In this document: positions 589 through 57,527 of the stretch, in pieces
Position numbering within the stretch: position 1 is the first letter of the stretch
How the letters are laid out: every line of letters starts with the position of its first letter
NCBI GenBank assembly: GCA_963749075.1
Contig: CAVVLJ010000021.1
Coordinates: forward strand, 512,001 to 576,000
DNA from: an uncultured Pseudomonadota bacterium
GTDB lineage: Bacteria > Pseudomonadota > Alphaproteobacteria > JACZXZ01
Length of the DNA stretch: 64,000 nucleotides
Direction: 5' to 3'
The notes under the pieces: generated by a model
Told to the model about the DNA's origin: nothing
Databases searched by the model: none
Seen by the model: only the letters and a program-made list of their open reading frames with translations
Made by a program: the position numbers and the translations under genes

Positions 589-704
589 GGCCCGAAGCTC
601 TCCAGCAGGTCGCGCCACGGCGCGCCCGATCGCAAGAGCCAAAGGGCGCCGTTGAGAATGCGCCTGTCATCCACACGGGGAATACCGCGTGGCTTGTTTG
701 GCAG

Positions 705-891
705 CTTCGGCTTGATGGCACGCCAGTTATAGTCGGCGGGTTCGTGCCGCATGAGTCGATGCTCCTCCTTGGGAGCTTGAATCGCGGCCGGTGCGAAGCG
801 ATCAACAGCGAACCAGCATCTCCGAAGTCACCCGCTAACCGGACATGAGGCGGACATTGGCGAATCGACGCGAATGACCCCAATGAGACAT
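705..891 (+). repeat. Cassette-boundary element 1 (TGGCAC site ... middle site ... TGACCC site), longer and more degenerate than the others
   Basis: cttcggcttga-TGGCAC at 705-721; middle site with right arm ctaaccggaca at ~818-845; atcgacgcgaa-TGACCC-caatgagacat at 864-891. Confidence 0.6.
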
Positions 892-1017
892 TAGGCCGCA
901 CACGCTATCCGTACCCAAATAGACGGCTTCAAAACTCTTCAGATGTGCTAATTTTCGATTTGGTCGGGGTTTTGTCCTGACCTGAGAACAAACAATTTGT
1001 TGCAATGGAGGTTCCAA

Positions 1018-1305
1018 ATGCCCGTCGTCGTCGTTGTTCATCGTCTCAAAAATTTTGATGAGTGGATTAAGATATTCAAGGCCGACCCCCCACCAAAAAT
1101 TGGCCGTTGGCGACTGTTACGCGGAAGCGACGATCGCAACCGAGTTCACGTTGTCGGGGACGTGGCAGCGTCGGAAGTTGAGGCCGTTAAGGATTTTCTT
1201 GGGTCGCAACACATGCAAAATGTGTTTAAGCGTGTTAACGCAATGTCGACGGCGCCGCTCGAATTCATCTGGCTCGAAGAGCTAGGGTCTGGACTCACAA
1301 TTTGA
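1018..1305 (+). CDS. Small hypothetical protein (possible dimeric alpha-beta barrel/cyclase-like); last codons replaced by IS sequence
   Basis: GGAGG RBS before ATG 1018; VVHRLKNFDEW...GSDDRNRV pattern; AT-richer than host genes; IS inserted at CTAG 1282-1285. Confidence 0.6.
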   Translation: MPVVVVVHRLKNFDEWIKIFKADPPPKIGRWRLLRGSDDRNRVHVVGDVAASEVEAVKDFLGSQHMQNVFKRVNAMSTAPLEFIWLEELGSGLTI

Positions 1306-2107
1306 TCCAGTAGAGTGCGCCGACGAGGGCTGCGGCGGCAAGGAAGTTTCTGGCCAGCTTGTCGTATCGGGTTGCGATGCGCCGCCAATCCTTGATGCGG
1401 CAGAAGTAATTTTCGATCTTGTGCCGCCTGCGATAGATGCGCTTGGGACAATAGGCTTTCTTGGTGGCATTGCTGCGGCTGGGGATGACGGGCAAGGCAC
1501 CTTCGTCCCTGATCTGCTGGCGGACCTTTTGGCTGTCATAAGCCTTGTCGGCCGCGACGGCGAGGGGCGGCTTGGGCGTGTCCAGTACCGCTTCGACGAC
1601 TTGGCTGTCATGGACCTGTGCGCCCGTGACGATGAAGTTCAGCGGGCGGCCTTTGCCGTCGACGACCGCATGGATCTTCGTGCTGCGCCCGCCCCGGCTA
1701 ATACCGATCGCCTGATTTTTCTCCCCCCTTTTGCGCCGCTCGCCGCGCGATGCGCTTTCACGATGGTGCTGTCGATCAGATAGAGGCTATCGTGCGATGT
1801 CGCGGCCAGCGCGTCGAAAATCCGCTTCCAGATGCCGCGGCGAGACCAGCGGTTGAAGCGATTGTAGACCGTCGTGTAAGGCCCATAGCGCTCCGGCAAA
1901 TCTCGCCACGGCATGCCGGTGCGCAGCACGTAGAAGATGCCATTCATGATCCGGCGATCATCCTCTCGCGCCTTCTTGCGAAGGCCCGGCATCAACGGCT
2001 CCAGCACAGCCCATTCCTCGTCGCTCAAATCAAACCGCATGATCCACCTCCAACCACGGTGAATCACATTCGGACAACTTTTTCAAGACATTATGCGGGT
2101 ACAGACC
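1286..2107 (-). mobile_element. IS5-family insertion sequence (IS427-like group), about 822 bp, CTAG target duplication
   Basis: Imperfect terminal inverted repeats GGTCTGGACTCA (1286) and revcomp GGTCTGTACCCG (ending 2107); CTAG at 1282-1285 and 2108-2111; two-ORF transposase. Confidence 0.9.
1295..2040 (-). CDS. IS5-family transposase, orfA/orfB joined by a probable -1 programmed frameshift
   Basis: orfA MRFDLSDEEW...LRTGMPWRDLPERYGPYTTVYNRFNRW...IDSTIVKAH; orfB ...SRGGRSTKIHA...ADKAYDS...IENYFCRIKDWRRIATRYDK; slippery AAAAGGGGGG at 1732-1723. Confidence 0.88.
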
Positions 2108-2238
2108 CTAGCACTCTAGTTAGCTAGCGATACGAGGGGCATTATCTGCCCCGTATCACGCCGACGTGGACGGTAAGTTCACGCCGCGCGGCAGCGTTTA
2201 GACCTGGATAGAACGCGCGCAGAGGTGCCAGCAAGTCG

Positions 2239-2357
2239 ATGTTGCTTCTTGGCACCTTGCGGCGGTGCCGGCAGCATGCGGGCGCTTCCGGAGCTGAAGG
2301 AATAGCTGCCGCGCCACTGACATGGGCGGATGACTCAGGCTGACCCGAAGGCGACAT
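2239..2357 (+). repeat. Cassette-boundary element 2 (three sub-sites, cores at 2250, 2295, 2341)
   Basis: atgttgcttct-TGGCAC-cttgcggcggt ... TGAAGG ... atgactcaggc-TGACCC-gaaggcgacat; closely similar to 4191-4309 and 5447-5562. Confidence 0.85.
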
Positions 2358-2656
2358 TCAGTACTGCTGTCAATGGTACGTAACCAGAGGGGAAAGCCTA
2401 GTAGGTACTCACCGGGTTTAGCCCCGCGCCCCTCTATTCAATCAAGATCGGCGCAAGCTGCTTCCCTGGCTTGAGAGCCGCGGCGCGTGTCATGGCAGGG
2501 CAGAATAAGGCGCGCGATAGATGAAGCAGAGTAGTCCGCGCAATGGCCTGTTGCTTCCGCACGTCGCAAGGCGTATCAACCCAAATGGCTCCAATCGCCG
2601 CTGGATGAAACTTCAGTGGCATGTCAACTTGATCAGACAAATCAGCGTCAGGGAAG

Positions 2657-2881
2657 ATGATCGCCAGCGACGATAAGAAGGTTAAAACTAACCCCGCTCA
2701 AAAAAATGAGGCCCCTCCGAAGAGCAAGGGCACTTCAGGTGTAGACCTATCCAAGGCTAAGGGCGGCGAGATAGCTGCCGACTTACCCTCCGGCTATAGC
2801 AGGGGCGAGAGCCAGAAACCGGTTTCCCAAGCTTATAAAGATAACTGGAACGTGATTTTCGCGAAGAAAAGAAAGCGATAA
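2657..2881 (+). CDS. Small Lys-rich hypothetical protein
   Basis: 74-aa ORF after AGGGAAG; C-terminus YSRGESQKPVSQAYKDNWNVIFAKK looks protein-like; lies between two boundary elements. Confidence 0.55.
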   Translation: MIASDDKKVKTNPAQKNEAPPKSKGTSGVDLSKAKGGEIAADLPSGYSRGESQKPVSQAYKDNWNVIFAKKRKR

Positions 2882-2927
2882 TTCGCGTAATGGAGCAGGT
2901 GTAGCCGGTGTAGCAGTAGCTCGGCGC

Positions 2928-3047
2928 AGTCAAGCGCTCGGCCGCTTCTCCTCGTTCGCTGCGATGCATCAACACGGCCGCTATCGAAGGGTAACCCGAC
3001 GGTCTGCGTAAATTGCGGCACCGCGGCCCATGACCCAAAGCAGATAT
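2928..3047 (+). repeat. Cassette-boundary element 3 (divergent sequence, same spacing)
   Basis: Cores CGGCCG (2939), CGAAGG (2985) and TGACCC (3031) followed by aaagcagatat; 46/46-bp spacing versus 45/46 in elements 2 and 4. Confidence 0.65.
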
Positions 3048-3220
3048 TCTCCATCATGGCCCATATCTGAGTCAGCGCTGCCCAGGCCCGCGCTGGCGAC
3101 AGGTTCAGTTGGAATTTCTAAGGCGGCGCGGTGCGGATCAGCTCTCGCCAGCGCCGGTCTCGCGCGAAACATGCTCCGTCTGGACTACGCGGTACTGTAG
3201 GTCGATTTGCTCTGCTCGAG

Positions 3221-3703
3221 CTAACGCGGACCGACCTGCAACGGCGCAGGCAAGCTATCGGGGAGCTTGCCCAGCATCTGCAACGCCGCTTGCATACCGA
3301 TGATGTAGCCGTAATTCCCAAGTCCGCAGATGACCGCTCTAACGGCCGACGACAGTTTGGAATGCCGGTGCAGCTCATCGCGTGCGTGAATGTTCGATAT
3401 GTGGACCTCAATGATAGGACCTTCAAAAATCTTGAAGGCATCCAGCATCGCGATTGAGGTGAAAGAATATCCCGCTGGGTTGATGATGATCGCATCGGCG
3501 TCCTGGCGTGCAGATTGAATCAGGTCGACTAATACGCCCTCGTGGTTCGACTGATGAAACGCCAGGCGAGCGCCGGCGAATTTGGCGAATTCCTCGCAGC
3601 TTGCCTTGACGGTCTCGAGTGTCGTCCTGCCGTAAATGTCCGGCTCGCGGGTGCCAAGAAGGTTGAGGTTAGGCCCATTCAGAACCATCAGGCGTGCGGT
3701 CAT
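3221..3703 (-). CDS. aroQ: Type II 3-dehydroquinate dehydratase
   Basis: LNGPNLNLLGTREPDIYG, QSNHEG, IINPAGYS and EVHISNIHAR motifs. Confidence 0.93.
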   Translation of the reverse strand: MTARLMVLNGPNLNLLGTREPDIYGRTTLETVKASCEEFAKFAGARLAFHQSNHEGVLVDLIQSARQDADAIIINPAGYSFTSIAMLDAFKIFEGPIIEVHISNIHARDELHRHSKLSSAVRAVICGLGNYGYIIGMQAALQMLGKLPDSLPAPLQVGPR

Positions 3704-3751
3704 GGCTTTTCCTTTCGGGCCTTCAGTTTCTGGATTGTGAGACGGTCTAGC

Positions 3752-4072
3752 TTATTTTCCGTCATGGAACAGCGTCGCGAGCGCCTCGGTGGTCCGCACA
3801 AGGATGCCCGCGTCGACACCAACGGCCGTAAAGGTCGTGCCAAGTTCGATGCAACGAGCCGCAAATGCGGCGGCGGGTGTCAAGATGCCAGCGGGCTTGC
3901 CGCACGTGCGAATTCGCCTGATGGCATCTTCGATGATCATCTTGACCTTCGGATGGCCAGGTTCGCCAACGTGGCCGAGGCTCGCCGCCAGATCGGTCGG
4001 GCCGATGAACACACCATTGACACCGTCGATTGACGCAATCTGCTCCAGGCGATCGAGCGCCTCAGCTACTGA
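3752..4072 (-). pseudogene. 5'-truncated HpcH/HpaI (HpaI/GarL-type) aldolase fragment
   Basis: EALDRLEQIASIDGVNGVFIGPTDLAASLGHVG..HP...GKPAGIL is the C-terminal half only; in-frame TGA immediately upstream. Confidence 0.8.
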
Positions 4073-4190
4073 CGATCACCGCCCGATGATAGCACTCCGA
4101 AGGTACTCGAAGCCTCGATATCTTGCGCGCTGGCACGCCGAGGGTGCGACTTTCCATATCGGAATGACTGTCTGCCGGCGCCTATCGTGA

Positions 4191-4309
4191 AAGTCTGTTC
4201 GTGGCACCTTGCGGCGGTGCCGGCAGCGTGCGGGCGTGTCCGGGGTTGAAGGAATAACTGCCGCGCCGCCGACGTGGGCGCATGGCCCAGGATGACCCGA
4301 ACCAGACAG
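4191..4309 (+). repeat. Cassette-boundary element 4 (cores at 4202, 4247, 4293)
   Basis: aagtctgttcg-TGGCAC-cttgcggcggt ... gtgtccggggt-TGAAGG ... atggcccagga-TGACCC-gaaccagacag. Confidence 0.88.
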
Positions 4310-4462
4310 CCGCGATGATCCAGACCCGCACCGGCATCGTGGGTGCTTGCCCGACGTATCGAAACGGGGCAGATTTCCGTCCGGGCCAGAGAGCATCTGG
4401 GGCATGTAGGTCGCAAGGGGCCTCCGAGAGGATAGGTTTGGCCGAACGCACAGGAGCGAGCC

Positions 4463-4942
4463 ATGAGACAGGCAGGAAGAATTGCGGCGACGGCTGTTGG
4501 CGTCTTGCTCGCGCTGACTGCGGCGGCGCTACCGGCACGGGCTCAAGTCCCATGCTCGACCGTTTGCAGTAGGTACGATCAAGGTCAATGCGTTCAGTAC
4601 ACGCACTACGGCTGCGAGGGCGCGGCCCCGTCCGCCCCCGCCAACAGCTACGGCGCTATTGCCTTCGGCTCCAAGAGCAGGGCCTGGGGCGTGTCCTATC
4701 ATTGGGGCAGCGAGGCGAAAGCGGAGAGCGTTGCCATGCAAAGCTGCAAGCAGCACGGCGACGATTGCGAAGTGATGGTGTGGTTCGACCGCAAATGCGG
4801 AGCGGTGGTGGCGGCCGACGGTGCCGCCGCCTTTTGGGGGCTTGGCGACAGCGAAGCCGAGGCGCGCGCGGACGCCCAAACCAAATGCGAGCAAGGCGGC
4901 GGCAAGGGTTGCAAGGTGTGGGCTTATCAGTGTTCGAAGTGA
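4463..4942 (+). CDS. Secreted Cys-rich DUF4189-like protein
   Basis: AGGAG RBS; signal peptide; YGAIAF...AWGVSY...AESVAMQSC....C.VMVWF..CGA pattern. Confidence 0.75.
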   Translation: MRQAGRIAATAVGVLLALTAAALPARAQVPCSTVCSRYDQGQCVQYTHYGCEGAAPSAPANSYGAIAFGSKSRAWGVSYHWGSEAKAESVAMQSCKQHGDDCEVMVWFDRKCGAVVAADGAAAFWGLGDSEAEARADAQTKCEQGGGKGCKVWAYQCSK

Positions 4943-4968
4943 GGGTTTGGAAGTCTGACCGCGGGCGA

Positions 4969-5322
4969 GTGAGGGTGCCTCTCATCGTCAGCCTCCTCCT
5001 AATTTTCCTTCGTCCCGCAATCGCCGACTGTGTGACCGGCGAACATTTCGCCTGTGTGACGCTGGATGGATTTGACGAGGTGGCAGCGGCGCTGAAAGCG
5101 GGCAATCCAAACGTCATTCACACGCCGGGTTGCGATTATACGGAGCCGGGTCACAAAGTCGAAGTAATAGGACCGATGGCCGCTCTCGCCGAACCCATTG
5201 CCATATTCTATGGCGATTCGGCAGTCACCAGAGCGAGCGGCGTGCCCGATGTATTTCGATCATTGGCGCAGTCAGGATGGATCCACGTCTGGACGATCAA
5301 GGAGAACGTTGTATGCAATTGA
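4969..5322 (+). CDS. Hypothetical secreted protein
   Basis: GTG start, hydrophobic signal (VPLIVSLLLIFLRPAIA), four Cys; directly follows the DUF4189-like gene. Confidence 0.5.
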   Translation: MRVPLIVSLLLIFLRPAIADCVTGEHFACVTLDGFDEVAAALKAGNPNVIHTPGCDYTEPGHKVEVIGPMAALAEPIAIFYGDSAVTRASGVPDVFRSLAQSGWIHVWTIKENVVCN

Positions 5323-5446
5323 AGCACTATCCCTCTTTCGGCGGGGTTGCCGCGCTGTCGCTCTCTGGCTTAGTCACGATTTCTCTTGTTGCGTGCATGG
5401 GTTGCCTTCGATCGTTCAGATGAAGTCCGGTGTGCGGTCCGGCGCG

Positions 5447-5562
5447 ATGTCTGCTTATGGCACCTTGCGGCGGTGCCGGCAGCGTGCAGGCGTGTCCGGG
5501 GTTGAAGGAATAGCTGCCGCGCCGCTGACGTGGTCGGATGGCCCAGGATCTCGAGCGGACGC
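5447..5562 (+). repeat. Cassette-boundary element 5 (third core degenerate)
   Basis: atgtctgctta-TGGCAC-cttgcggcggt; body nearly identical to element 4; right end reads ggatctcgagcggacg instead of ggaTGACCCgaagcggaca. Confidence 0.82.
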
Positions 5563-5755
5563 CGGCATTCGTGCATCGTTTAGCGCGTGTACCTTCCTCG
5601 AAATTCATACGACGGCGCAATCGCCGCTTGCCGCACGGGCGTCGACACCATAACGAGCCGAACCGCGGGCCTGTTCAGGGCAAAGCGTTGCTCGCGACCG
5701 TGGTGCCGATGGCCTGAATCGGCAGCCCGCAAGACCGATCGTCGTGCCTCTTGAT

Positions 5756-6256
5756 CTATTTTGCGGCCCCGAAGAACTGATAGGTCGCGGAGTAGCGCAT
5801 TCGGGCCTGCTCGCCCAAGTGGCTTGCGTCGCAGCCGGTTGCAGGTGCCGCACCCCCCTTGGTGTCGGCCCGGCGGATCGTCGTGACCGCGGCGAGGCTC
5901 CCCGAACCCTCGTGGGTCTTGACCTCGAGGAGGAGCCAGGGAACAGCGCCAGGTTGAGGCGCCTCCGCCTTCGCGAAGATCGCGCCGGTGACCTCGGAGC
6001 CGTCGGCGAGCTTCCAGCCGGGGCCCGCGAAGTGGGTTCCGATCTGCCTTCCCTTAGCGTCGAAGAGATTGGCCTCGGGCGCCTTGAATACCCACTCCGG
6101 TCCCTTGTCCTTGGCCTCGCAGGAATAGATCTGAACTCCATCGGCCTCAGCCTCGGCCAGGAGCGGCGCACCCGCTGGCGGGGCCACCGCGGCCTGGCCG
6201 GCGAGCGCGGGCACTGTGCAGAGGATGAGCAAGGCGCCGGCGACACGAATGATCAT
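5756..6256 (-). CDS. DUF3455-family secreted protein
   Basis: Signal peptide; GVQIYSC...W.FKAPEA.L...GTHFAGP.W...AVPWLLL...DTKGG.AP...YSATY. Confidence 0.8.
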   Translation of the reverse strand: MIIRVAGALLILCTVPALAGQAAVAPPAGAPLLAEAEADGVQIYSCEAKDKGPEWVFKAPEANLFDAKGRQIGTHFAGPGWKLADGSEVTGAIFAKAEAPQPGAVPWLLLEVKTHEGSGSLAAVTTIRRADTKGGAAPATGCDASHLGEQARMRYSATYQFFGAAK

Positions 6257-13208: not shown

Positions 13209-13217
13209 TGCGTAGCC

Positions 13218-13319
13218 CACCCCCCTCCCTAACCCTTCCCCTCAAGGGGGGAGGGGAAGTGCATAACATTGCCACAAGCTTCCCCCTCCCCCTCGAAGGG
13301 GGAGGGTGGGGAGGGGGTG
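13218..13319. repeat. REP-like inverted doublet (CCCTCCCCCTCAAGGGGGGAGGG type), copy 1
   Basis: Two inverted GC-rich hairpin units around a short spacer; same family at 28671 and 50535. Confidence 0.85.
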
Positions 13320-28610: not shown

Positions 28611-28670
28611 GATGCAACGCCTCCTCGGGCGGGACGGAGAGCGCGAGTATAACCGCTCTTGCGGCATGTG

Positions 28671-28770
28671 CCCCCCACCCCAACCCTCCCCCTCAAGGGG
28701 GGAGGGGGAAGTTTTCGTGGCACCTTGCGCACTTGCCCTCCCCCCTTGAGGGGGAGGGTAGGGTGGGGGG
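28671..28770. repeat. REP-like inverted doublet, copy 2
   Basis: ccccccaccccaaccctccccctcaaggggggagggg ... ccctcccccttgagggggagggtagggtgggggg. Confidence 0.85.
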
Positions 28771-28827
28771 TATAACCGCAGCTCGACCATGGCGCGGCGT
28801 TAGCCTGCCGATAACGAGAAGGCGATC

Positions 28828-50508: not shown

Positions 50509-50534
50509 CGCGCCTCTTCCGGCGCCTTTAGTCT

Positions 50535-50637
50535 ACCCCCCACCCCAACCCTCCCCCTCAAGGGGGGAGGGGGCTCTCGCGGTGGCAACGCTGATATCTT
50601 CCCCTCCCCCCTTGAGGGGGAGGGCAGGGAGGGGGGT
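50535..50637. repeat. REP-like inverted doublet, copy 3
   Basis: accccccaccccaaccctccccctcaaggggggaggg ... ccctccccccttgagggggagggcagggaggggggt. Confidence 0.85.
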
Positions 50638-55528: not shown

Positions 55529-55790
55529 CGAAGAACTCCTTCCTGCCCGTGGCTCACTTGGAGCTGGCGTTTTGTCAGCTGCGCGAGAGGCGCTACAGCG
55601 CGCTCCCAAAAACGCAATTAGAAGCATAAAGCGGGCGCTTCGCTTCATTTTCTTCACCTGATACTGGCGGAACGTACGGCCATGGGCGGCAGCATGACAA
55701 CCACAAGCGGGGTTGTCGGGGGTTAAACGCCCTCGCATGGAGGAGGTATGGTGCGGAATTCGTGATTTTTGCACAAGTGAGGGATGGCGA

Positions 55791-55805
55791 ATGACCGGTT
55801 TGGGT
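55791..55805. repeat. Left part of a 28-bp TGACCC-type site split by the intron (right part 56530-56542)
   Basis: atgaccggttt-GGGT plus CA-atccgagacat rebuilds arm-GGGTCA-arm (reverse complement of TGACCC). Confidence 0.75.
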
Positions 55806-56529
55806 GTGCGCCGTGACAAGGCGGCGCTTTCCAGTGGGTGCAAGGCCCACCCGGCAAGCGCTCCAGCCGGAAGCAATCGGAGCAGTCATGGAGGCAACGA
55901 AATGGCTGAAGCCTTCGGATAGCGGGTCACGAATTGGTGACAGCGCGAGTGTGCAGGCCGCAACGCGAGTGAACGCCGAGCAAGCCTCGAAAAGGACGAT
56001 GTGCAGGCCGACCCGACGACCCTTTCGGGGAAGGCTGATACGCCTGGGTGAATGAGCGAAACCTACGGCCAGGCGCTGCACCGGGGTAGTGGCGGCAGCA
56101 TGTACACAAGGAAAGCGTACGCAACACGGGAAGCTCCAAGGCGTGGTCAGGGATGACCAACCGGACGCCCGCGAGGGACAGGCCGGGCGCCGTGGGGTGG
56201 CGGAGAGGTTCGTAGTACCGCTGAAGCCGGGTAACGCCGGTGGAGGGAAGGGGCCTCAGTTCAAGACAGACGCAATACGCGGTGAGGGACCTGGAGATTG
56301 GGCAACCTATCAACTCCGAAGAGTGTTCAGAAACTGCAGATGGTGTTGCACGCGAACTGTGAAGGCGTGAGGTCTTGTCCGAGAGCCGGATGCGGGAGAT
56401 CCGCACGTCCGGTTCGATGAGCGGGGTGTGGAAACGGAGCCAGGGTCGAACCAGTGAGGCACCGCCAGACGAAAGGGGCGGGAACAGATATGTTCGGCCT
56501 ACAGCCACCGCGCCACACCTCGACTCTAC
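55806..56529 (+). mobile_element. Group II intron, 724 nt, reverse transcriptase ORF deleted
   Basis: 5' GTGCG; domain V GAGCCGGATGCGGGAGATCCGCACGTCCGGTTC at 56383-56415; 3' end CGACTCTAC; IEP start remnant TTG-GNLSTPKSVQKLQMVLHA at 56298 joined directly to ...AAGGCGTGA. Confidence 0.9.
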
Positions 56530-56633
56530 CAATCCGAGACATTGACGATCCCGCCGCCGTCTTGCCCCGCCACCTGAAATCTTGCTAGGGTCGCTCGTTG
56601 CCGAGACATCTGCTGCCCTGGAGGCATGGCGTC

Positions 56634-57527
56634 ATGAGCCCGACTGCGAGGCCCCGCCGCAGCCTCCTCTACATGCCGGGCTCGAACGCGCGCGCGCTCG
56701 AGAAGGCGCGTACGCTGGCAGCCGACGGGCTCATCCTCGACCTCGAGGACGCGGTGGCGCCCGACGCCAAGGCCGCGGCGCGCGCGCAAGTTGCGGCGGC
56801 GCTCGAGGCCGGCGGCTATGGCGGGCGCGAGCTCGTGGTGCGCGTGAACGGGCTCGAGACACCCTGGGGTGCGGAGGACCTCGCTGCCGCGGCGCGGCTT
56901 CCCGCCCATGCGGTGCTGGTGCCCAAGGTCGAGAGTGCCGAGATGGTGGCGGAGGTCGAAGGGCGGCTCGCCGCCGCAGGTGCCTCCGCCGAGCTCGCTA
57001 TCTGGTGCATGATGGAGACGCCGCTCGGCATCCTCCATGCCGAGGCGATCGCGGCCTCCTCGAAGCGCGTCGGCTGCCTCGTCATGGGCACCTCGGACCT
57101 CGCCAAGGACCTCCATGCCGCGCACACGCGCATACGCCTGCCCATGCTGACGAGCCTCGGGCTCGCGATCCTCGCCGCGCGCGCCCACGGCCTCGCCATT
57201 CTCGACGGCGTGCATCTCGATCTCGCCGACGACGAGGGCTTCGCCGCGAGCTGCCGGCAGGGGAAGGAGCTCGGCTTCGACGGCAAGACGCTCATCCATC
57301 CGAAGACGATCGCGGCGGCCAACGAGATCTTCGGCCCCACGGCCGCGGAGGTCGCCTGCGCCGAGCGCATCATCGCCGCCCATGCCGAGGCCGCCCGCGC
57401 CGGCAAGGGCGTCGTGCTCGTCGACGGCAAGCTCATCGAGAACCTGCACGTCGAGAATGCCGAGCGCCTGGTGGCGCTCGCCGAGGCGATTCTGCGCCTC
57501 GAGACCGCCGCCGGCGCAGCCGGGTAG
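56634..57527 (+). CDS. CoA ester lyase, CitE family (malyl-CoA thioesterase/lyase-like)
   Basis: RPRRSLLYMPGSN, DLEDAVAP, VRVNG, MMETP and GFDGKTLIHP motifs. Confidence 0.9.
   Translation: MSPTARPRRSLLYMPGSNARALEKARTLAADGLILDLEDAVAPDAKAAARAQVAAALEAGGYGGRELVVRVNGLETPWGAEDLAAAARLPAHAVLVPKVESAEMVAEVEGRLAAAGASAELAIWCMMETPLGILHAEAIAASSKRVGCLVMGTSDLAKDLHAAHTRIRLPMLTSLGLAILAARAHGLAILDGVHLDLADDEGFAASCRQGKELGFDGKTLIHPKTIAAANEIFGPTAAEVACAERIIAAHAEAARAGKGVVLVDGKLIENLHVENAERLVALAEAILRLETAAGAAG

Follow-up and report, generated by a model that had tools for sequence, protein, structure and literature searches.

A group II intron without its own reading frame in an uncultured alphaproteobacterium: insertion sites, exon pairings and relatives

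Background

What brings a group II intron that encodes no protein into a stretch of intergenic DNA, and which features of the flanking sequence direct it there? The question is posed by a 724-nt intron on the plus strand (55806-56529) of a 64,000-nt stretch of the genome of an uncultured Pseudomonadota bacterium; this stretch, hereafter the window, corresponds to C21:512001-576000 of a 5.49-Mb assembly with 68% G+C (genome G000). The initial annotation placed the intron in the 6-bp core of a 28-bp hairpin site, saw further sites of the same kind in the window, and suggested a lineage specialised, like the IIC-attC introns, on such cassette sites. The comparison of the copies within the genome and of their relatives in other genomes favours a different account: probably, this is a member of a multi-copy family resembling classes IIE and IIF that has lost its open reading frame (ORF) and homes in the ordinary way, through three exon-binding sites (EBS1, EBS2 and EBS3).

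Results and discussion

Insertion sites of the intron family

Five copies of the intron are present in the genome, one of which, on contig C17, encodes an intact protein. A scan of one genome per species identified 537 stretches encoding relatives of this protein; the best 80 (87-95% identity) come mostly from Bradyrhizobium or uncultured Alphaproteobacteria, and a genome often holds several of them. The family is widespread in soil Alphaproteobacteria, and its relatives extend to Microvirga, Paraburkholderia and Sphingobium plasmids. Both exact ends, with 30 nt of flank on each side, were available for 49 of the 80 loci; the other 31 were left out, 6 of them near a contig end, 3 with an overlong span and 22 without a terminal match at one end. 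Together with the four copies of the genome whose 5' flank is known, this gave 53 insertion sites. Beyond the motif described below, the flanks are unrelated: all-against-all BLAST of the 300-nt flanks of the 49 loci returned 5 similar pairs among the 3' exons and 7 among the 5' exons.

The sequence logo of the 53 sites reveals a recurring 5'-exon motif, with the consensus AATGTCCGCTTT at positions -16 to -5 relative to the insertion point, followed by a 4-nt intron-binding site (IBS1) and by C at +1. Among the distal positions, A is found at -15 in 36 sites, G at -13 in 44, C at -11 in 50 and G at -9 in 48; the base at +1 is C in 48 sites, and in the other 5 it is G. Downstream of +1 the logo holds almost no information, and A occupies +2 in only 10 sites. 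The bases at -4 to -1 fall into several groups, namely GGGT (25 sites), ACGT (6), CCAC (5), TTGC (5), TGGC (3) and ACCC (2), with seven singletons. The suggestion that the lineage is site-specific is thus upheld. The proposed 6-bp core GGGT/CA (the slash marks the insertion point) contracts to the five bases GGGT/C, which correspond to IBS1 and IBS3, the final A being no part of it; likewise, in the recurring arm-core-arm arrangement that the joined-exon logo had been expected to show, the left arm is real and coincides with the distal motif, including IBS2, whereas the right arm is not conserved.

To score individual sites, a position weight matrix (PWM) trained only on the insertion sites of other genomes was used, for which the 99th and 99.9th percentiles of the background are 2.5 and 7.2 bits. 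The occupied site in the window reaches 14.9 bits. Four look-alike sites on the minus strand of the window, most likely the other sites of the initial annotation, score 7.8 (875-892), 10.3 (2341-2358), 13.9 (3031-3048) and 4.6 bits (4293-4310). Judged against the background percentiles, their resemblance to the target is real, so that the window's other sites do carry the same motif. Genome-wide, there is no enrichment of empty target-like sites over a reversed control (5 against 3 at 10 bits or more, 11 against 10 at 8 bits or more).

55790-55801, plus strand: distal motif of the 5' exon (-16 to -5), AATGACCGGTTT, 10 of 12 bases identical to the family consensus (logo, PWM)
3031-3048, minus strand: unoccupied look-alike target, the best in the genome, 13.9 bits (PWM scan)

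Base pairings between the intron and its exons

The elements that read this site were located mainly by covariation between exons and intron, and are as follows.

55802-55805, plus strand: IBS1 (-4 to -1), GGGT, the partner of intron positions 214-217
56012-56029, plus strand: EBS1 hairpin with a CCCGA/UCGGG stem and an 8-nt loop; EBS1 is ACCC at 56019-56022 (covariation)
56530, plus strand: IBS3 (+1), C (logo, covariation with intron position 284)
56089, plus strand: EBS3 (intron position 284), G (covariation)
55792-55796, plus strand: IBS2 (-14 to -10), TGACC, with 4 of 5 positions paired to EBS2 and an A-A mismatch at -12 (covariation, register test)
55994-55998, plus strand: EBS2 (intron positions 189-193), GGACG (covariation, register test)

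For EBS1, 64 copies were compared, 9 of the 73 aligned rows having been excluded at the outset for truncated or misaligned 5' ends. Mutual information peaks between exon positions -1 to -4 and intron positions 214-217, and all four positions pair in 56 of the 64 copies, 53 of these with Watson-Crick pairs only; seven complementary pair types are represented. In 1000 shuffles of the partners, 16.8 copies paired on average and never more than 26. The initially proposed EBS1, ACCUA at 56061-56065, belongs instead to the loop that holds alpha' (see below), atop the cgcctgg/ccaggcg stem, which does exist. EBS3 and the base at +1 are complementary in 49 of 50 copies, 44 with C at +1 facing G and 5 with G facing C, with a single exception.

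EBS2 was missed by mutual information because IBS2 is nearly invariant. In register, a mean of 4.09 of 5 pairs is formed, compared with 1.23-2.66 in six slid registers. Furthermore, A at intron position 191 faces T at -12 in 38 copies, and T at 191 faces A in 7 and G in 2; there are 17 non-pairing combinations, some of which stem from 1-nt offsets of the exon. Other candidates for EBS2, namely the loop of the 5' hairpin, the CAAGC loop and AGCGGGT at intron position 116, were discarded, as they either showed no covariation or lay within stems.

Within the intron, the alpha-alpha' pairing of domain I involves two further elements:

55859-55863, plus strand: alpha (CGCTC), in the loop of the first domain I hairpin, paired with 56054-56058
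56041-56075, plus strand: hairpin with alpha' (GAGCG, 56054-56058) in its terminal loop, stem 56041-56047/56069-56075

This pairing is backed by two compensatory changes, one in locus L047 and one in the plasmid relatives L091 (Buttiauxella) and L092 (Xenorhabdus). The latter two, with proteins 59% identical, have in common a different 5' exon (..CTTAACGTA..) and an A/T-rich EBS1/IBS1, so that the distal motif is specific to each lineage.

Identity and ends of the intron

The assignment to group II, made originally from the sequence alone, is borne out by two Rfam models, RF02003 (the domain I-IV model D1-D4-4; 99.5 bits at 55832-55968, cut-off 49) and RF00029 (domains V and VI; 44.4 bits at 56381-56529, cut-off 40). 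The intron starts with GTGCG, in agreement with GUGYG, ends with TAC, in agreement with AY, and has a structured domain I and a domain V with the catalytic AGC; in addition, EBS1, EBS2 and EBS3 are complementary to the flanking exons. A reverse transcriptase (RT)/maturase ORF in domain IV, which marks the mobile form, is lacking in the window copy and present in its sister on C17.

55806-56529, plus strand: ORF-less group II intron, GTGCG to CTCTAC (Rfam matches, comparison of copies)
56340-56372, plus strand: remnant of domain IV, with the start codon of the intron-encoded protein (56340) and a few codons; the junction to the last codons of the ORF and its stop codon lies near 56356/56357 (identical in the window, C2 and C4 copies)
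56383-56415, plus strand: domain V with a 5-nt terminal loop, GAGAU (Rfam alignments)
56417-56529, plus strand: extended domain VI region, up to the 3' end (domain VI carries a large insertion in the RF00029 alignment)

Both ends, as well as the flanking sequence, are as the initial annotation gave them. In the relatives, GTGCG opens the intron also where the exon ends in TTGC, CCAC, ACCC, ACGT or TGGC, and the four exon bases preceding it are those that covary with intron positions 214-217 in the 64 copies; the 5' end therefore lies at 55806, and GTGTG at 55804 is excluded. At the 3' side, all five copies of the genome diverge directly after CTCTAC (56529), and the next base, +1, covaries with intron position 284. 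In all five, GGGT stands ahead of GTGCG and C behind CTCTAC, the flanks being otherwise different. From its position, A at 56523 is the likely branch point.

Copies in the genome and the encoded protein

Three of the five copies, those in the window and on contigs C2 and C4, are 724-725 nt long, and the two others (C17 and C22) are full-length, 1983 nt, with about 1.26 kb extra in domain IV. Direct comparison shows that the three ORF-less copies have one identical deletion junction, at which about 1.26 kb was lost and which keeps the start codon with a few codons and the last codons with the stop. Thus, a single ORF-less progenitor reached at least three loci, necessarily with the protein supplied in trans. 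The source of the protein in this assembly can only be C17, which encodes an intact RT/maturase of 429 amino acids with the RVT_1 and GIIM domains (TIGR04416, 333.8 bits, cut-off 300) and a YADD motif, and without an endonuclease domain, since the reading frame of C22 ends after 132 amino acids. The latter copy (C22:5-1987), which starts 4 nt from the end of its contig, has 8 differences from C17, one of which is a stop after RT codon 132. The window copy is 98.7% identical to the full-length copy over the 5' 553 nt and 99.4% identical over the 3' 160 nt.

The other two ORF-less copies (C2:107651-108375 and C4:504791-505515) are 99.3% alike. Their insertion sites contain poor distal motifs, at 0.5 and 2.1 bits, which implies that the motif is not obligatory, and adjoin strong local hairpins (-18.2 and -15.9 kcal/mol). 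The C4 intron interrupts a perfect 9-bp palindrome.

Genomic neighbourhood and RNA-library contigs

The intron is intergenic. The upstream neighbour is a gene for a LysE-type translocator on the minus strand; about 100 nt downstream, in the same orientation as the intron, is a gene for an HpcH/HpaI-family (HpcH/citrate lyase-like) lyase (start near 56598-56636), followed on the plus strand by one for a MaoC/mesaconyl-CoA hydratase. Five genomes of the same genus align to the window only from about 56585 and have a different upstream neighbour, so there is no orthologous empty site for comparison. Elsewhere in the window, neither exon half recurs, exactly or nearly so, more often than chance would allow.

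RNA-library contigs at least 90% like the window, from four soil, rhizosphere and peat libraries, cover only the bins from 55805 to 56542; they derive from relatives or other organisms, include no exon and are uninformative on splicing at this locus. In two studies (runs X3 and X15), one contig each links 56529 to 55806, which fits either a full-length intron circle or a tandem DNA copy. At one related locus (L039:2941-2960), tandem introns are found, with the 3' end of one copy abutting the 5' end of the next. In the TTGC subgroup, to which this locus belongs, EBS3 is C and the target base at +1 is G, which is also the first base of the intron; thus, an inserted copy recreates the target at its own 5' junction.

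The D1 repeat and other small repeats

A 111-nt repeat, denoted D1, occurs in the window at 2246-2356, 4198-4308 and 5454-5564, and further stretches of it were found at C4:167230-167335, C16:332057-332147 and C22:71579-71621. Its right termini in the window are the look-alike sites 2341-2358 and 4293-4310 and a degenerate third. Aligned, 19 copies outline an element that is about 125 nt long, encloses two hairpins and has inverted ends; each end bears the intron's motif read inward, with the core TGGC on the left and GGGTCA on the right. Of the 19 left ends, 14 exceed the 99th percentile of the background, as do 10 of the 13 GGGTCA-containing right ends; one right end is the exact consensus (19.0 bits). 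Of 5 sister genomes, 4 contain D1, one of them (G007) with up to 11 matches; of 5 genomes from other genera of the family, none does. Some copies form same-strand arrays with spacings of 0.5-2.7 kb, in which unrelated small genes (DHquinase II, DUF4189) lie between the copies. The intron itself was not found in four of the five sister genomes, and only fragments were found in the fifth, which makes it a recent arrival in a genus that already held D1. The four genome copies whose 5' flank is known all lie outside D1 termini.

D1 could be an element akin to miniature inverted-repeat transposable elements (MITEs) or to paired repetitive extragenic palindromic (REP) sequences (REPINs); no credible Rfam match was obtained for positions 600-6000 of the window at a loose threshold. 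It differs from integron attC sites in that its inverted ends are of another sequence, in its two internal local hairpins and in the lack of an integrase, and the attC end consensus was not seen on reading the sites and the D1 ends. No tyrosine recombinase (PF00589) is encoded within 30 kb of C21:512-518k, the nearest being 30 kb from the D1 cluster, and none near the intron or on the D1-array contigs of the related genomes G007 and G006. The intron does not lie in an integron array either, with no attC sites seen and no integrase nearby. Alphaproteobacterial REPs with CGTC or TGTC tags are described as having an unpaired tag, a stem of 8-9 bp that begins with AT, a loop of 4-5 nt and a tail of CCA (PMC3733652); no obvious fit to this text description was seen.

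Certain sequence words hint at a connection with small palindromic elements elsewhere. In the 105 nt that follow the insertion sites, the word GACAT is 3.2-fold enriched (14 occurrences in 5087 nt, compared with 0.87 per kb), clustering at +19-21 and +54-57, and the window site is itself a mini-palindrome, AATGAC...GACATT. The 10-mer ATGTCCGCTT occurs 82 times in five genomes, compared with 26 for a control word. Exact ATGTCCGC..GCGGACAT palindromes are rare, with 0-2 in each of five genomes, and inward ATGTC..GACAT pairs are in no clear excess over outward ones (429 and 382, respectively); the listing of all ATGTCCGC occurrences and the pairing of motif matches without the core yielded noise only.

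Some other elements were also noted. An IS4/IS5-family transposase gene (DUF4096), split over two frames, adjoins the first D1 copy (1282-2067, minus strand). Three palindromic repeats with C/G tracts (CCCCTC...GAGGGG type), about 105 nt long and REP-like in appearance, are located in the window at 13213-13318, 28664-28771 and 50529-50637. A GATTTCCTCATCC... unit, arranged as a 53-nt inverted pair, occurs at about 20 places in the genome (e.g. C20:30887-30939 and C4:116282-116334) and is another family of small palindromic repeats.

How the intron may have reached its site

Taken together, the covariation data argue for ordinary homing by an ORF-less family member. Under this scenario, a non-autonomous copy would have landed in intergenic DNA by retrohoming or retrotransposition, with the RT/maturase provided in trans by the full-length copy on C17. 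The site would be chosen through the pairing of EBS1 (ACCC) with IBS1 (GGGT), of EBS2 (GGACG) with IBS2 (TGACC, 4 of 5 pairs) and of EBS3 (G) with C at +1, and the conserved positions -16, -15 and -9 to -5 are probably read by the intron-encoded protein; the right arm would be outside what is recognised. Sub-lineages would hold the distal motif and exchange the 4-nt EBS1, opening new sites.

Several observations weigh against this scenario. EBS2 is only 4-5 bp long, and at the window site the pairing has a central A-A mismatch. No RNA partner was found for the conserved positions -9 to -5 (GCTTT) and -16/-15 (AA). Two of the four scorable copies in the genome, C2 and C4, lie at poor distal motifs, beside strong local hairpins. 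Two related copies (L056 and L073) carry EBS1 and EBS2 that do not fit their exons: they combine an EBS1 of the TTGC type (GCAA) with a GGTC EBS2 and yet reside at ACGT and GTCC exons; either recombination between sub-lineages or ectopic insertion may account for them. The presence of the motif at both ends of D1 is not explained by recognition intrinsic to the intron. Finally, splicing and mobility at the window locus are predictions from sequence, the available RNA contigs stemming from other organisms and leaving the exons uncovered.

The view that the intron is a IIC-attC-like specialist on a new type of cassette site, whether as a parasite or as a builder of cassettes, can draw on the four motif-bearing sites that lie within 3.5 kb of the window on one strand, on the look-alike sites at the ends of D1 with its same-strand arrays, on the short, 4-nt IBS1, as in IIC introns, and on the encoded protein, whose best relatives among solved structures are IIC RTs (7uim, 2e-47; 6ar1, 1.1e-46), followed by a IIB one (4.8e-39), a ranking that does not settle the class. 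We nevertheless regard it as very improbable. The intron has EBS2 and a ribozyme of about 700 nt, in contrast to IIC introns, which lack EBS2 entirely (PMC3753933). The 28-bp hairpin of the initial annotation does not stand out: the joined 40-mer folds at only -8.6 kcal/mol, and the 53 joined sites average -9.58 kcal/mol compared with -9.23 for shuffles (Wilcoxon p=0.57). The 3' exon is not conserved and none of the 49 related sites in other genomes has a D1-like 3' exon; no copy among the four in this genome with a known 5' flank lies in a D1 terminus, no recombinase gene was found in the regions named above, and none of the observations has a bearing on how cassettes form. On another reading, the intron could have adapted to harmless sites in host repeats, the 12-nt motif being kept since the natural targets would be the inverted termini of MITE- or REPIN-like elements, D1 in this genus and small AATGTC...GACATT palindromes elsewhere. 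The inward motifs at the D1 ends, the GACAT enrichment, the excess of ATGTCCGCTT and the palindromic window site speak for this possibility. It appears unlikely all the same, given that empty sites are not enriched genome-wide, that exact palindromes are rare and inward pairs hardly exceed outward ones, that D1 was found in this genus only, where the intron turned up in just one of five sister genomes, as fragments, and that most flanks are unique sequence.

A third view, on which the window copy is an inert relic that no longer splices or moves, so that the match to its site is only historical, strikes us as improbable. The copy does lack a reading frame of its own, only one intact protein is encoded in the assembly, the IBS2 pairing is imperfect and the RNA contigs derive from other organisms. 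However, the ribozyme is nearly identical to that of the full-length copy, its domain V, EBS1 and EBS3 match the family in sequence, and the same ORF-less form at three loci indicates movement after the deletion.

Homing of an ORF-less family member through EBS1, EBS2 and EBS3 thus remains the preferred explanation, and the claim of a new cassette-targeting intron is withdrawn. What the analysis adds is a map, supported by covariation, of EBS1, EBS2, EBS3 and alpha-alpha' in an intron family widespread in soil Alphaproteobacteria, which keeps a 12-nt distal motif while exchanging a 4-nt EBS1 among at least seven variants, and a second case in nature where an ORF-less derivative arose by one deletion and then spread. 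The occurrence of the same motif at both ends of a genus-specific repeat is mildly interesting. More speculatively, and in our judgement with little likelihood, the distal motif could also be the terminal half-site pair of small elements with inverted ends, in D1 arrays here and in mini-palindromes elsewhere. In that case, the intron would share one DNA signal with these elements, or compete with them for it; the ends of the elements would be safe landing pads for the intron, or else the enzyme that mobilises the elements would read the same motif; and the D1 arrays between gene-sized segments would represent an undescribed cassette-like system open to invasion by the intron.

Comparison with known group II introns

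The class of the intron was judged from its ribozyme traits against published descriptions: the ribozyme is IIB-like with IIE/IIF traits, and not IIC. In IIE and IIF introns, alpha' is described as located in the terminal loop of Id3 and the domain V loop as 5 nt long (PMC3753933), and the window intron has both features. The likeness extends to EBS1 and EBS2 in domain Id, to a ribozyme that, the ORF excluded, measures about 700 nt, to a protein with the RT and X domains only, lacking an endonuclease domain, and, for IIF, to the long domain VI, here 113 nt from domain V to the 3' end (PMC3753933, PMC3552965). A difference is the EBS1 of only 4 nt, and the likeness is to the descriptions, not to named members such as the class F introns of Nitrobacter.

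IIC introns, which are described as targeting the stem-loops of terminators or attC sites (PMC4424553, PMC3753933), and in particular IIC-attC introns such as S.ma.I2, resemble the window intron in the absence of an endonuclease domain, in the short IBS1 with a single IBS3 and in insertion near inverted repeats, seen here for the C2 and C4 copies. They differ in the ribozyme, which has a reduced domain I and is about 400 nt long compared with 724 nt for the ORF-less intron with its EBS2, and in the target, which in the present family is a conserved 12-nt sequence motif, with no stem-loop and no integron. Group IIB introns, some with class E proteins, have been reported beside the cassette arrays of halophile integrons and of clusters of attC sites lacking integron integrases (CALINs) (PMC7923331); the arrays in that account were called by Integron Finder with their attC sites, whereas in the present case neither an attC consensus nor an integrase was detected.

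Two other multi-copy systems offer parallels. RmInt1 and its relatives in Sinorhizobium are, likewise, multi-copy alphaproteobacterial introns that home outside genes, and for them target divergence has been proposed as an escape from site saturation (PMC4181065, PMC4615759). RmInt1 belongs to class D and its home is a specific insertion sequence; it, too, lacks an endonuclease domain. In Thermosynechococcus elongatus, the TeI3/TeI4 introns include ORF-less copies with one breakpoint and form families with diverged targets, and experiments demonstrated that the ORF-less copies are mobilised by the protein of a related copy (PMC2882425). The common deletion breakpoint, the protein from a related copy and the diverged target specificity are all mirrored here; the T. 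elongatus introns differ in belonging to class CL/IIB, with an endonuclease domain, in their host and in their number, 28 copies compared with the 5 in this genome.

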